A stretch of 64,000 nt of DNA from Coraliomargarita sp. (GCA_965216325.1 OZ244160.1:1600001-1664000), one strand, 5' to 3'. Shown: positions 28,232 through 33,023, counted from the first letter of the stretch. Made by a program: numbers and translations. Notes: generated from the letters alone by a model not told the origin.

Positions 28232-28507
28232 ATGCGAACAACGGTCACATTGGACCCAGATGTAGCTGAATACATCCGCGAGGCTTGCCACAAACGCAAC
28301 AAGAGCTTCAAGCGCGTGCTCAACGACGCTCTACGTGAATCACTAAAGCCTGCAAGCACGCAAAAACCCGGTTTGCTAGCCCCTCGATCGATGGGACAAG
28401 CGCCCGGTGTCGATCCGCGCCGACTGAGTGAACTGGCCGACGATTTGGAAGCCGAAGCCTATCTCGCGGCCGAAGAGCAACGCGCCTATAATCGTAAACA
28501 GCAGTGA
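28232..28507 (+). CDS. Antitoxin, RHH/CopG-like (VapB-type)
   Basis: MRTTVTLDPDV...SFKRVLNDALR; overlaps the PIN gene by 4 nt. Confidence 0.85.
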   Translation: MRTTVTLDPDVAEYIREACHKRNKSFKRVLNDALRESLKPASTQKPGLLAPRSMGQAPGVDPRRLSELADDLEAEAYLAAEEQRAYNRKQQ

Positions 28508-28935
28508 TCCTCCCCGACGCCAATCTATTGCTCTATTCGGTCAATAGCGACAGTCTAGACCACCAATGCGCATTCACCTGGTGGAGCGAGCTAATTCAAA
28601 GCGAAGCCCCAATTGGCATCTACACGGGAGTCGCCTTTGCATTTATTCGACTATCAACTAATCGTCGAGTCTTCGCTCAACCCCTGAGTGTTGAAGAAGC
28701 CTTCGCGTATTTGAACAATTGGTTGAGCTTTCCTAACGTGCGCTGGATCGAAGCCGAGTTGGACGACCTCGCTACAGCCGAAACACTGCTTGAAGCCGCT
28801 GGAACTGGTGGCAATTTGGTTAGCGACGCTCAGATCGCAACCGCTGCACTCAGGCTGGATGCCACGGTTTACAGCGCCGATGCCGATTTCGACCGCTTTC
28901 CAAATTTGAAATGGGAAAATCCACTTCACAATTAA
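28504..28935 (+). CDS. vapC: PIN-domain toxin (VapC family)
   Basis: ILPDANLLLY, NLVSDAQIA and SADADFDRF. Confidence 0.9.
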   Translation: MILPDANLLLYSVNSDSLDHQCAFTWWSELIQSEAPIGIYTGVAFAFIRLSTNRRVFAQPLSVEEAFAYLNNWLSFPNVRWIEAELDDLATAETLLEAAGTGGNLVSDAQIATAALRLDATVYSADADFDRFPNLKWENPLHN

Positions 28936-28950
28936 GCCACCCGCAAAAAC

Positions 28951-29409
28951 ATGATCCGCATTGCTCGCCTAATCTACCTGCTGATCGCCAGTCAACTCTA
29001 CGCCGAGATCACAATCCACAAAGACAGCAAGGACAAGCTCCTCGGAGTGTAAAAGATCGGCGAATTGAGCTTTACTGCGTTCCAGTTCACCGACTCTAAG
29101 GAAAACAAAAGAGTTCACTTCGCATTAAGAGAGGGGGAGCGTTTGATCTTCAGCTACTCATCCGAAGGAGATACCTCCTACTTCCCTGAAAGCGGCTTCC
29201 GAATAGGTGTAACTGAAGTGAATAATACCCTACAAAAAGTCGCGGTTTTGCGCGACAAGCCGCAAAAGGAAATTTACGTAGTCGAGTTAAAAAAAGGCGC
29301 CTTCGTCTTCACCCAATGGCCCGAGGGACTTGAAAAAACCGACTCTTCTCTGATGCTCGACATTACTGAGATACCGTGGCTGCAGAACGCGGCGCCAGAC
29401 ACCCAGTGA
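28951..29409 (+). pseudogene. Secreted hypothetical protein interrupted by an in-frame TAA
   Basis: ATG 28951 gives the signal-like MIRIARLIYLLIASQLYA...LLGV, then TAA at 29050-29052; the same frame continues as ORF 29065-29409. Confidence 0.6.
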
Positions 29410-29487
29410 TTTATACCTCCACGCACACACACATCGCGTCCGTTAGACCACGCAGAGCGCTTGCTGAAGCTGCGCGCTACGCAGCGC

Positions 29488-30090
29488 CTAGAAGCTCACA
29501 AAGCCCTGCGCCAGTTTGACCACGAACACGCCGAGATTACTCGCCGCGTGGGCAATCATACAGGGAAACAGCGAGCGGGTCGGGTTCCACGGGCCGAAGC
29601 GCACCGCATAGAACCACAGTGAGTTCAAAAACAGAATTGAGGTCGTGAAGATCGCCTTGGTTGTGAAGGTGAACTCAAAGCCATTTTCAGTACTCCACAA
29701 GTGCATGTGGATAATCGCAAACAGCAGCGAGAAGCCCACGCAACTGCCGATCAGCGCCGCCTTGCCCTTTTTGTCGACCACGAGGAAGCCGCGAAAGATA
29801 ATTTCCTCCACGACGCCCGCCCCGAGGCTAGCGAAGAGGAAATACCAGACCATCGTGCTCTGCTCCGAGGCAATGCCCAAGGCAATCTCGCCGCCGGTCT
29901 CAATGCCCAGAATCAGCAGCGCGCCTACGACACCAATCAGGATCGCCCCCACAGTGCAGGGAGTCGCGCCCGGCATCGGCGAGCTGTTAGGCTCGCCAGC
30001 GCGCACAGCTTTTAAATCGGCCCAATACATCTGCAGCACGTAGACAGCAATGCCCACATACATCAGAATCATGATCGGGTTCTCGTTCAT
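29488..30090 (-). CDS. CPBP/CAAX-family intramembrane glutamic endopeptidase
   Basis: VVEEIIFRG, FAIIH and IAHAASN. Confidence 0.88.
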   Translation of the reverse strand: MNENPIMILMYVGIAVYVLQMYWADLKAVRAGEPNSSPMPGATPCTVGAILIGVVGALLILGIETGGEIALGIASEQSTMVWYFLFASLGAGVVEEIIFRGFLVVDKKGKAALIGSCVGFSLLFAIIHMHLWSTENGFEFTFTTKAIFTTSILFLNSLWFYAVRFGPWNPTRSLFPCMIAHAASNLGVFVVKLAQGFVSF

Positions 30091-30094
30091 CTAA

Positions 30095-30186
30095 AAGAAG
30101 GTAGAATTTAGGAGTTAGAAGCTAGAAGAATGAATACGTCAGCGTAGATTCTTACTCCTAACTTCTGCCTTCTAACTTCTCACATT
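30095..30186. repeat. Inverted heptamer tandem-repeat element
   Basis: GTAGAAT TTAGGAG TTAGAAG CTAGAAG ... CTCCTAA CTTCTGC CTTCTAA CTTCTCA. Confidence 0.7.
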
Positions 30187-30200
30187 GAAGTGCGAAGCAC

Positions 30201-30572
30201 TTAAATGTGACGGGAGTCCGCCTCGTCCTTCTCGGTGTAGCCACTGTCCTGACGGTTGTGGTTCACCTTGTTCTTTTTGACGTAGGCTTCGTAAACATCT
30301 TCCGGAGTCATGCCGAGCACCTGAGCAATCGAGATCAGGAAGTGGAACAGATCCACGACCTCGACCTTGGCATTCTGCTCGTCGAACTCCTGATACTTTG
30401 CCCACCACTTCCACGGCACCGAGTCGATCAACTCAGCGATCTCTTGCTGCATCGCGCGAGTGTAATTGAGCACCCACTGCGCCTTTTCTTCGTCCGACAT
30501 ATTGTCGGTATTCACGCCAATGCGCTTATTGAGCGCGTCCTGTTGAGCAAAAATTTCGTCGAGTTTGTCCAT
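30201..30572 (-). CDS. Dimeric all-alpha dUTPase family protein
   Basis: QEIAEL, WKWW, VEVVDLFHF and YVKKNKVNHNRQ..GY. Confidence 0.88.
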   Translation of the reverse strand: MDKLDEIFAQQDALNKRIGVNTDNMSDEEKAQWVLNYTRAMQQEIAELIDSVPWKWWAKYQEFDEQNAKVEVVDLFHFLISIAQVLGMTPEDVYEAYVKKNKVNHNRQDSGYTEKDEADSRHI

Positions 30573-30700
30573 GCGCAAGTGCCTAGGTGAGCAACCCTAT
30601 GCAAGCAAGCGCATTCAACGCATCCAAGCAACTTTCAGCCAACAACTAGCAACAATCCCAACTTAACCCTTGCGGGACAAAATTTCCTACTCTACCGATA

Positions 30701-30847
30701 GCCGCGTTGATAGTGGCCCCGCGCAGCAACCGACCTCAGTCGAATTCTCTTCGAGACCCTCTGCGCCGCGTCTCACCGACCAGCCCACATCAACCTCTCA
30801 TGCGGCACCTTGCGTGATGGACTGCTCCAGCGCTCGCCGTGCACGCA
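30701..30847 (+). promoter_or_regulatory. Structured 5' leader RNA (putative cis-regulatory element)
   Basis: Nested helices GCCGC/GCGGC, GTTGAT.GTGG/CCAC.ATCAAC and GCGCAG/CTGCGC, two small hairpins, then a TGCGTG/CACGCA stem. Confidence 0.5.
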
Positions 30848-30881
30848 CCAAACATAATCACATAGATATAGAATAGAACCG

Positions 30882-31631
30882 ATGCCAGAATTCGAAGAAA
30901 CCAGCTCCACGAGCAATCCTTCGCACAGTTACACGCCTAGCACCGACGCCAAACCACGCACTCGCCGCCGTAGCGGTGGATTCAAAAAAGAATACGGCAG
31001 CGCCCCCAAGGGTAACATGGGCGAAGTCGATCCAGTCGATGCTCTCAAATCTGAAAAGCTAAGCGGCGGCACTGAAGCTCCAGCAGCCGAAGCGCCGAAG
31101 CAGGAACGCACGCCAAAGGCTGACAAACCTGAGCGCAAAGAGCGCGCACCTCGCCAGAAGCGTGAGCCTCGCGAAGACGACACACCACGCGGCAACGCCG
31201 ATCCAAGCGAAGCCACCCTCGCTTCCATCAAGGTAGTCGAAGGCCGCATCGCTGAGCGTAAAGCTGAGCGTGACGCACGCTACGAAGAGCGCAAGAAGGC
31301 CCGCGCTGTAGAAAAGAAGGACAAGCCAGCGGCAAAGAAGACTGCCAACAAGCCTAAGGCTGCAGCAAAGAAGCAGCCAGCCAAGAAGAAGGGCTTGCTC
31401 GCATCCATCCTCAGCCTCTTTGGCCTCGGCCCAAAGGAGCCAGTCAAGAAGTCCGGCGGCAACCGCCAGGGCGGAGGCAACAAGGGCGGTCGCCCACAAG
31501 GTAAAGGCGGCAACCGCGGAGGCCAAAACCGCCGAGGCGGCAAGGGAGGCAATCGCGGTGGTCAAGGCCGTCGCGGTGGACGCGGCGGACAAAACCGTCG
31601 CCGTCGCCCAGAAGGCGCTCGCAGCGAATAA
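30882..31631 (+). CDS. Low-complexity basic protein with amphipathic helix and RGG-rich tail
   Basis: Strongly biased codons, own terminator, KKGLLASILSLFGLG helix and GGNRGGQNRRGG repeats. Confidence 0.8.
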   Translation: MPEFEETSSTSNPSHSYTPSTDAKPRTRRRSGGFKKEYGSAPKGNMGEVDPVDALKSEKLSGGTEAPAAEAPKQERTPKADKPERKERAPRQKREPREDDTPRGNADPSEATLASIKVVEGRIAERKAERDARYEERKKARAVEKKDKPAAKKTANKPKAAAKKQPAKKKGLLASILSLFGLGPKEPVKKSGGNRQGGGNKGGRPQGKGGNRGGQNRRGGKGGNRGGQGRRGGRGGQNRRRRPEGARSE

Positions 31632-31644
31632 GCTTTAGTAAGTC

Positions 31645-31678
31645 AGGAGCCGCAGCCCAAAACTGCGGCTCCTTTTTT
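31645..31678 (+). terminator. Intrinsic terminator
   Basis: AGGAGCCGCAG-loop-CTGCGGCTCC-TTTTTT. Confidence 0.88.
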
Positions 31679-31727
31679 CCCAATTCTACTTCTAACTTCT
31701 CACTCCCAGCTTCATACTTCTCAAACA

Positions 31728-33023
<1,296 letters not shown>

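Follow-up and report, generated by a model that had tools for sequence, protein, structure and literature searches.

Protein X and its family

We analyzed a 64,000-nt stretch of the Coraliomargarita sp. genome (GCA_965216325.1 OZ244160.1:1600001-1664000), hereafter the window, and focused on an open reading frame (ORF) located at positions 30882-31631. The frame starts with ATG, is open up to its stop codon and encodes a 249-aa protein with 274 homologues, which we refer to as protein X; downstream of it, on the same strand, lies its conserved partner gene, murA (31728-33023; Pfam EPSP_synthase, E=2.6e-102). Unless stated otherwise, all features described below are on the plus strand. A previous sequence-only reading of the window had interpreted X as a free-standing, membrane-tethered RNA scaffold similar to the one carried by RNase E, perhaps belonging to a split degradosome. 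As detailed below, X represents an uncharacterised family restricted to Opitutales, an order of marine Verrucomicrobia, and its design echoes the RNase E scaffold as a separate gene within an unexpected operon.

Searches against Pfam yielded 0 families for X at E<=1, and the sole NCBIfam match was a sub-threshold hit to TolA low-complexity sequence, bearing out the earlier claim that the protein lacks enzyme motifs. In particular, Pfam detected neither a DEAD/Helicase_C core (PF00270) nor, at E<=1, a histone-like or HU-type family. Comparison of the X family profile with the PDB returned nothing but the RGG tail of LSm4 (E=0.32). Furthermore, 29 of 30 family members scanned against Pfam had no family, the remaining one showing a marginal match to DUF6481 (E=0.0021), and nine counterparts from other families (see below) had none either. 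In the AlphaFold2 model, which was run from a 22-sequence alignment, X is mostly disordered, with a mean predicted local distance difference test (pLDDT) score of 58, a predicted template modelling (pTM) score of 0.23 and 83 residues below a pLDDT of 50; helices are predicted only at residues 51-57 (weak), 110-146 (block pLDDT 85-91) and 172-179.

Conservation of X is concentrated in islands, which we take as the microdomains of the family. Across 68 sequences, mean conservation is 0.73 for the N-terminal 62 residues, 0.74 for the long helix, 0.68 for the amphipathic segment and 0.48 for the tail, whereas the linkers have drifted to 0.33 (residues 63-107) and 0.32 (residues 141-168). The protein opens with MPEFEE (30882-30899), in which M1, P2, F4 and E5 are invariant and whose conservation extends from the protein to synonymous sites; Y17 and P19 are also invariant. 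It is followed by the Arg patch KPRTRRRSGGFK (residues 24-35; 30951-30986), which contains the RTRRRSGGF string singled out earlier and includes seven consecutive residues, R28, R29, R30, S31, G32, G33 and F34, that are invariant in alignments of 22, 24 and 30 sequences. The patch is a candidate arginine-rich motif that may bind RNA or protein. The next conserved element is a short linear motif, MGEVDPxxALKxEKLSG (residues 46-62; 31017-31067), encompassing the weak predicted helix 51-57; G47 and E58 are invariant, and conservation reaches at least 90% for L55, L60 and S61.

A disordered, P/E/R/K/A-rich linker of variable length (residues 63-107; 31068-31202; pLDDT 47-62) separates this motif from the conserved long helix (residues 108-146; 31203-31319), which combines a docking-like start, PSxxTLAxIxxVE, with an E/R/K-rich remainder and in which P108, T112, A114, V119 and R126 are invariant. 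Since the hydrophobic face of this helix covers just its first ~12 residues, the short coiled coil of the sequence-only reading is supported as a predicted helix (110-146) and not as a coiled coil. The helix leads into a basic K/A/P-rich block (residues 147-167; 31320-31382; conservation 0.32), with residues 141-168 carrying a net charge of +9 with 10 Lys and 8 Ala. The charged low-complexity blocks reported earlier correspond to residues 63-107 and 141-168. The block abuts a candidate membrane-targeting helix, KKKGLLASILSLFGLGPKEP (residues 168-187; 31383-31442), in which G171, F180 and G183 are invariant and which overlaps the predicted helix 172-179. This conserved hydrophobic or amphipathic segment, also recognized in the earlier reading, includes the sole hydrophobic stretch of X, GLLASILSLFGLG, flanked by KKK and PKE. 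At 13 residues, compared to the approximately 18-20 needed, the stretch is too short for crossing the membrane, and X is not an integral membrane protein by this measure. The C-terminal part of X is the Arg/Gly/Asn/Gln tail, which spans 62 residues (188-249; 31443-31628; G 24, R 14, N 6, K 5 and Q 5) and has a net charge of +17; in 68 family members, the last 55 residues consist of R, G, N, Q and K to 51-89%, with net charges of +9 to +18. Recent repeat expansion was considered as the origin of the tail and rejected, Tandem Repeats Finder having reported just two trivial 2-copy rows.

Relative to a reference consisting of EF-Tu, EF-G and the ribosomal cluster, the codon adaptation index (CAI) of X is 0.708, which ranks 179th among 2163 ORFs of at least 150 aa (top ~8%), with the ORF set being crude and only EF-Tu, EF-G and L2 of the reference genes having been located by search. 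Thus, of the strong codon bias claimed previously, the bias is there and its strength is moderate rather than extreme. Principal component analysis of codon usage was dropped as an index of expression, given that the ribosomal genes and EF-Tu fell in the middle of the range and the main axis correlated with the G+C content of third codon positions at r=-0.60. Parts of the coding sequence are covered, at low depth and 90-99% identity, by contigs from two RNA libraries (X1 and X2), with none from X7 and X8; these contigs come from relatives and show neither the expression level nor the transcript ends. Overall, X is probably a well expressed, Opitutales-specific and intrinsically disordered protein.

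A word-index search with X recovered the 274 homologues at E<=1e-3. Those with names are 'hypothetical proteins' of Coraliomargarita, Puniceicoccaceae, Opitutales or Verrucomicrobiota, and one JGI record carries the automatic label 'ribonuclease E'. A profile search run exhaustively over 1.84 billion representatives yielded 75 matches, 66 of them at E<=1e-10. All 75 are no longer than 340 aa, nearly all are full length and aligned from residue 1, and none is fused; nor was any longer protein found that shares residues 160-249 of X. Thus, X is a stand-alone protein and not a fragment of a known gene, an outcome for which the sequence-only reading had allowed. With 274 homologues and 72 genomic loci, the conservation of X is more than chance.

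The distribution of the family was assessed with a profile of the N-terminal 64 residues (alignment A2), which was run on 401 Verrucomicrobiota genomes. It matched one place each in the genome of the window and in 25/25 genomes of its GTDB family, and the other 375 genomes gave three marginal partial matches only (E 1e-3 to 1e-2). Direct reading of the DNA upstream of murA uncovered an X-like gene in 9 of 10 other Opitutales genomes (G001, G066, G189, G057, G165, G309, G033, G180 and G012), and the gene keeps this place even where MurA is just 35-37% identical; in the tenth genome, G192, murA is present with no X-like gene upstream. None of five genomes outside Opitutales has an X-like ORF upstream of murA. 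The counterparts are disordered proteins of 225-384 aa, with an acidic N-terminus that often begins MP.FE and an Arg patch that includes Phe. They then carry a -VVENP...LSG-like string akin to residues 46-62 of X, an amphipathic helix, found in every Opitutales family examined (for example, GFWASLKRKLATLFG, KKPGGFLGWLKGLFGG and SLWRKFANWLTSLF), and an RG-rich tail. The same order of parts recurs in the positional counterparts of families f2-f8 and in Pelagicoccus. Hence, both the helix and the RG tail have been retained within the X family and, as an architecture, across Opitutales, and the X gene is older than the window's own GTDB family. None of the outcomes that the sequence-only reading had named as refuting it was observed. 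Three weak profile matches, P0185, P0187 and P0188, were considered as representatives of another phylum and rejected; they are Opitutales counterparts, with P0185 and P0188 being the Pelagicoccus version. P0185 had gone undetected in a first look, made with stricter settings, at a sample of 400 Verrucomicrobiota genomes.

The leader and the murA operon

Upstream of X, we found a conserved promoter-like block, TTAACNCTTGC ... AAAA ... CTCTAnCnATA (30663-30702). It is positioned 178-230 nt before the ATG in 47/73 loci, including the window, and 63-64 nt before it in 3 more. The conserved block probably sets the start of X transcription; a scan of 30100-32000 for the sigma-70 consensus gave no site. 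From the distance between the block and the ATG, the 5' leader of X would be about 175 nt long (30710-30881). The ~40 nt preceding the start codon are A/C-rich, with no Shine-Dalgarno sequence visible.

The leader contains a hairpin (30801-30847) supported by minimum free energy (MFE) folding and covariation. In the MFE fold of the window, its apex, UGGA-CUGC-UCCA (about 30817-30830), sits inside a longer imperfect stem. The apical motif GACUGYUC, with the CUGY loop closed by G-C and A-U pairs, is present in 60 distinct sequences, its distance to the downstream ATG being 37-66 nt. In alignment A4, which was anchored on the motif after seven loose regular-expression matches had been dropped and three duplicates collapsed, with three loci lacking a match, the hairpin has eight pairs and 79.6% of the cells are paired. 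Its covariation score is 0.315, compared to 0.107 for shuffled alignments, none of 500 of which reached it, and to at most 0.121 for slid partners. Compensatory changes were observed in 6 of the 8 pairs (e.g., GCUA/UAGC, GCCG/CGGC, ACUC/GAGU and AGAGG/CCUCU). RNAalifold run on the whole leader predicted 0 pairs, alignment A3 being too gappy, and the hairpin emerged after motif anchoring; no Rfam family matched the region 29000-33000 at E<=1. Structured 5' leaders are a known arrangement among autoregulated RNA-binding proteins, and the conserved hairpin is a plausible operator for autoregulation of X. Two other hairpins were seen in the course of this analysis. The f3 loci (L089 and L090) have a different one, GAGCGCGC...GCGCGCTC, at the same position as the leader hairpin of X, and the genome of the window contains two identical small hairpins with a GACTGTTC loop, 5.8 kb apart (G000 C1:483396 and 489204), which precede two neighbouring ORFs by about 240 nt.

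The start of the coding sequence is constrained as well. Over 73 sequences, the first six codons are nearly fixed, with CCA in 63, GAA in 72, TTC in 71 and GAA in 70, whereas RRRSGGF, equally invariant in the protein, is encoded by mixed codons. The start of the X message thus appears to be constrained as RNA, too.

The genomic context was assessed in 72 public loci, 70 of which were scanned for the X-murA gap and for terminators. A gap of 30 nt or less, as found in most relatives, has no space for a terminator or a promoter, so that X and murA, judging from their spacing, form an operon in most relatives, a point that the sequence-only reading had missed. The gap is at least 61 nt in 19/70 loci, two of the 19 being one broken and one masked locus. 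In the window, the gap includes an intrinsic terminator (annotated as 31645-31683) with an 11-bp stem and a T-run at 31645-31673. The terminator scan flagged 12/70 loci; the signal was strong only in the window and in its nearest relative, L002, the other ten having 5-6 bp stems with a mismatch or lying inside murA. The terminator ascribed to X by the earlier reading is thus a trait of this strain, not a property of the family.

Upstream of X, in divergent orientation, are a dUTPase_2/MazG-like gene (66/72 loci) and a CPBP protease gene (62/72), and ruvB follows murA in 29/72 loci within the 5 kb of downstream flank that was fetched. In one genome of family f7 (G189; L088 3848-4282, minus strand), rny is located directly upstream on the same strand, resulting in the order rny, X-like gene, murA, ruvB; in the genome of the window, rny lies about 31 kb upstream of X. 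In nine loci (L021, L046, L050, L057, L065, L066, L068, L070 and L072), an insert of ~4 kb separates the dUTPase-like gene from X. The only insert read, that of L046, lies 5' of the X promoter block and looks unrelated to X; of its two ORFs, which were named by eye only, the helicase-like one of 879 aa would be SNF2-type and the other, of 242 aa, SWIM-type. In L020 (5059-5157), the X-murA spacer consists of repeated heptamers (the variants CAGCCAT, CAGTCAT and TAGTCAT). The window also contains overlapping VapB-like and VapC-like (PIN-type) ORFs, named by eye, at 28232-28935, between an M3 peptidase gene and a 114-aa ORF; because it occurs in just 3-4/72 related loci, the pair is probably a mobile toxin-antitoxin insertion.

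Likeness of X to the RNase E scaffold

According to PMC4435900, three kinds of element define the RNase E scaffold: a helix that targets the membrane, RNA sites rich in Arg and microdomains that dock proteins. The non-catalytic C-terminal region of RNase E from E. coli and other gamma-Proteobacteria and X are both disordered and compositionally biased, and share a short amphipathic helix (a candidate in X), Arg-rich segments and microdomains set in variable linkers. Unlike RNase E, X is a free-standing protein of 249 aa with no S1 or RNase_E_G (PF10150) domain; it has no match to PF12111 or any other Pfam family, displays no sequence homology to the RNase E region and is encoded with murA. The order of parts also differs from that outlined for the RNase E scaffold, X having its motifs first, then the helix, and the Arg-rich tail last. 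In the cyanobacterial RNase E scaffold, a nonapeptide, RRRRRRSSA, docks PNPase (PMC3964918). Like this C4 nonapeptide, RTRRRSGGF of X is an Arg run followed by small neutral residues in a disordered region; however, the former lies at the C-terminus of the nuclease and the latter near the N-terminus of X, and the likeness involves a few residues only. X therefore resembles the RNase E scaffold elements in kind and not by homology. The only named ESM-Atlas neighbour of X is a cluster in which 15% of the members have PF12111, the PNPase-binding site of RNase E (PMC4435900); its score of 0.78 falls short of a level attained by a third of shuffled sequences, making it a lead only.

The genome of the window encodes a single RNase E/G of 584 aa (G000 C1:2346305-2348059, corresponding to L001 1165-2919; minus strand), the sole PF10150 gene, which adjoins rodA about 716 kb from X and has no C-terminal scaffold, as the sequence-only reading had anticipated. 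In Opitutales, RNase E/G has an extra acidic N-terminal extension of about 45 residues (11/11 proteins read versus 0/6 outside the order, in the window's genome and L121-L136), with the conserved strings EEL..PP and P.EL+..A.ERAKK.P, which precedes a short amphipathic helix; outside Opitutales, the protein starts at this helix, directly before the S1 domain. By its sequence, the helix may be a membrane anchor of RNase E/G itself. The co-occurrence of the extension and X is a single clade-level coincidence and provides a lead only. Within the extension, the string [IV][DN]P.EL[KR] is loosely like VDPxxALK of X.

The genome also encodes PNPase, RNase Y and four DEAD-box helicases. RNase Y (G000 C1:1597937-1599478) has an N-terminal hydrophobic helix, which, with the short amphipathic helix of RNase E/G, suggests that further RNA-decay enzymes of the genome are associated with the membrane. 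With X, RNase Y shares a membrane anchor (predicted in X) beside a disordered or coiled region, whereas its anchor is a true N-terminal transmembrane helix and it has catalytic KH and HD domains; by analogy, RNase Y would be a likely membrane neighbour of X. One of the four helicases (G000 C1:1169734-1171128, minus strand) has, by eye, a GGNRGG-type tail like that of X. As in the RG-rich extensions of DEAD-box helicases, the X tail is G/R/N/Q-rich, strongly basic and 50-60 residues long, but X has no helicase core and possesses an additional candidate membrane helix.

Possible roles of X

We tentatively favour, with a probability of about 0.4, the possibility that X is a peripheral-membrane, nucleic-acid-binding disordered scaffold or hub. 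The layout of X and its conservation, its disorder and helices (both as predictions), its operon setting and the hairpin in its leader are shown; what we infer is binding to the membrane and to RNA, contact with protein partners, and autoregulation. X would sit on the cytoplasmic face of the inner membrane, into which the helix 168-187, aided by the adjoining Lys-rich block, would insert in-plane. Nucleic acid, most likely RNA, would be bound by the Arg/Gly tail (+17) and the N-terminal Arg patch, and protein partners would dock at MPEFEE, YTPSTDA, GEVDPxxALKxEKLSG and the first part of the long helix. In this way, X could concentrate RNA and RNA-handling enzymes at the membrane from a free-standing polypeptide, a role akin to that of the non-catalytic half of RNase E in Proteobacteria, with its expression being set by the long structured leader and the hairpin serving as an autoregulatory operator. 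The retention of the architecture while the sequence drifts (0.68-0.74 in the islands versus 0.32-0.33 in the linkers) suggests such a role. Also consistent with it are the recurrence of the same parts in families f2-f8 and Pelagicoccus, the predicted disorder and helices, the covarying leader hairpin, the CAI within the top ~8% and the helicase-like tail, as well as, by analogy, the apparently membrane-associated RNA-decay enzymes, the RNase E/G extension and the likeness of the Arg run to the PNPase-docking nonapeptide (PMC3964918). The JGI label 'ribonuclease E' and, as a lead, the ESM-Atlas neighbour point the same way.

Several observations weigh against this proposal. Pfam, NCBIfam and PDB searches revealed no homology of X to the non-catalytic region of RNase E or to any RNA-binding family, and BLASTP of X against the helicase tail gave no alignment (E=33), so that this likeness is compositional only. 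In its own family, the helix 168-187 is more uniformly hydrophobic than classically amphipathic, with a hydrophobic moment of 0.28-0.54, and acidic lipids, DNA or ribosomes would be equally possible ligands of the polybasic tail. A covariance model of the hairpin (R1) scored the true site in its own genome at 16 bits (E=1.6), with five other places scoring equal or better; since the model does not separate the true hairpin from noise, no regulon is definable. A scan of the same genome by regular expression and complementarity listed 49 hairpin-like sites with no pattern, missing the imperfect stem of the window. A short RNase E/G with no scaffold, mostly in frames of 520-620 aa, is present as one copy in 201/201 Verrucomicrobiota genomes, so that the missing scaffold does not single out lineages with X. 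Finally, the strongest contextual signal for X points to murA rather than RNA metabolism: murA lies directly 3' of X in 69/72 loci, the 3 misses being contigs that end inside or just after X, and in 49/70 loci murA starts 8-30 nt after the X stop codon (median 21).

This synteny is the core of the main rival interpretation, in which X is a partner of MurA or the cell envelope that tethers, regulates or scaffolds MurA, which catalyses the first committed step of peptidoglycan synthesis, at the membrane or links it with a further envelope pathway. MurA would then be bound by the N-terminal motifs, and the helix plus polybasic tail would do no more than anchor X to the membrane on acidic lipids. 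MurA regulators that act through protein contact are known in other phyla. Beyond adjacency in the window's family, the presence of an X-like gene before murA in 9/10 other Opitutales, even with divergent MurA, speaks for this interpretation, as does a conserved acidic MurA tail, ...ERLxxxxMPK[DE]Lxx[ED], in families f1, f2, f5 and f7. We noticed this extra tail at the MurA C-terminus (window 32980-33020; L086, L087 and L088); it is missing from the divergent f3 MurA and in one non-Opitutales genome of the same class. However, a 62-residue tail with a charge of +17 far exceeds what a lipid anchor needs, and G192 has murA without an X-like gene upstream. Moreover, the strong terminator inserted between X and murA in the window and L002, together with gaps of at least 61 nt in 19/70 loci, indicates that tight X-murA coupling is dispensable, and conserved synteny need not imply a common function. 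A predicted complex of X residues 1-190 (alignment A5) with MurA (alignment A6), run with no controls, had interaction prediction scores from aligned errors (ipSAE) of 0.00 and 0.01, compared to a mark of 0.32, a modelling result that is 'no answer' and counts neither for nor against binding. Overall, we regard a MurA-linked or envelope-linked role as unlikely, though stronger than the other rivals.

The split degradosome of the sequence-only reading, in which X would be the detached scaffold of its own RNase E/G and recruit the nuclease, PNPase and a DEAD-box helicase to the membrane, is the least probable of the explanations considered. The absence of a C-terminal region from the 584-aa RNase E/G, the clade-specific acidic extension of this enzyme (11/11 versus 0/6) and the set of PNPase, RNase Y and four DEAD-box helicases in the genome would fit it. 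So would the candidate membrane-targeting helix and Arg-rich segments of X, both being types of element from which the RNase E scaffold is inferred to have arisen (PMC4435900), and the similarity of the Arg patch to the cyanobacterial PNPase-docking nonapeptide (PMC3964918). Yet, a scaffold-less RNase E/G is universal in the 201 genomes, including lineages without X, and the Opitutales enzymes that co-occur with X, at 585-651 aa, are not shorter than elsewhere. Hence, there is no complementary pattern, and nothing was 'split off' in Opitutales; the expectation of a short nuclease was correct, and its proposed link to X is weakened. The usual X-murA operon (gap of at most 30 nt in 49/70 loci) is not predicted by the degradosome idea, in the window's family X is not syntenic with rng, rny, pnp or helicase genes, rny being upstream in one f7 genome only, and no sequence homology was found.

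An abundant polycation that tethers the nucleoid or ribosomes to the membrane of these compartmentalised bacteria, combining a histone-H1-like K/A/P block with the RG tail, is an improbable alternative, drawing on the charges of the block 141-168 (net +9) and the tail (+17), on the high codon adaptation of X and on ruvB following murA in 29/72 loci (5 kb flank). The K/A/P block is, however, among the least conserved parts of X (0.32), no histone-like or ribosome-associated family was matched, and nothing specific links X to DNA or ribosomes. Comparably improbable is a more elaborate form of the RNA hub, a scaffold without a nuclease, in which the Arg patch would read the CUGY-loop hairpin of its own message and autoregulate the X-murA operon, while the motifs would recruit RNase Y, RNase E/G (through its acidic N-terminus) and PNPase, coupling membrane-located turnover of RNA to the first committed reaction in the making of the cell wall. 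The remaining probability belongs to something not listed here.

A full-text literature search, covering listings and abstracts, retrieved no description of an X-type protein. Of the undescribed system that the sequence-only reading had proposed for X together with its leader, the novelty has held up and the leader was found to carry a hairpin supported by covariation, whereas the degradosome part has been weakened. To our knowledge, little is known about the spatial organisation of RNA metabolism outside Proteobacteria, and almost nothing for the Planctomycetes-Verrucomicrobia-Chlamydiae (PVC) superphylum, members of which have unusual internal membranes. X offers a concrete entry point, being a conserved, single-copy protein that combines a predicted membrane helix, an RG tail and invariant motifs with a murA operon and a structured leader. 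If X is an RNA hub, the principle of the RNase E scaffold can exist as a separate gene; if it works with MurA, X would regulate peptidoglycan synthesis in a way not seen before. On either reading, a function could be assigned to an Opitutales-wide gene that is annotated only as 'hypothetical'.

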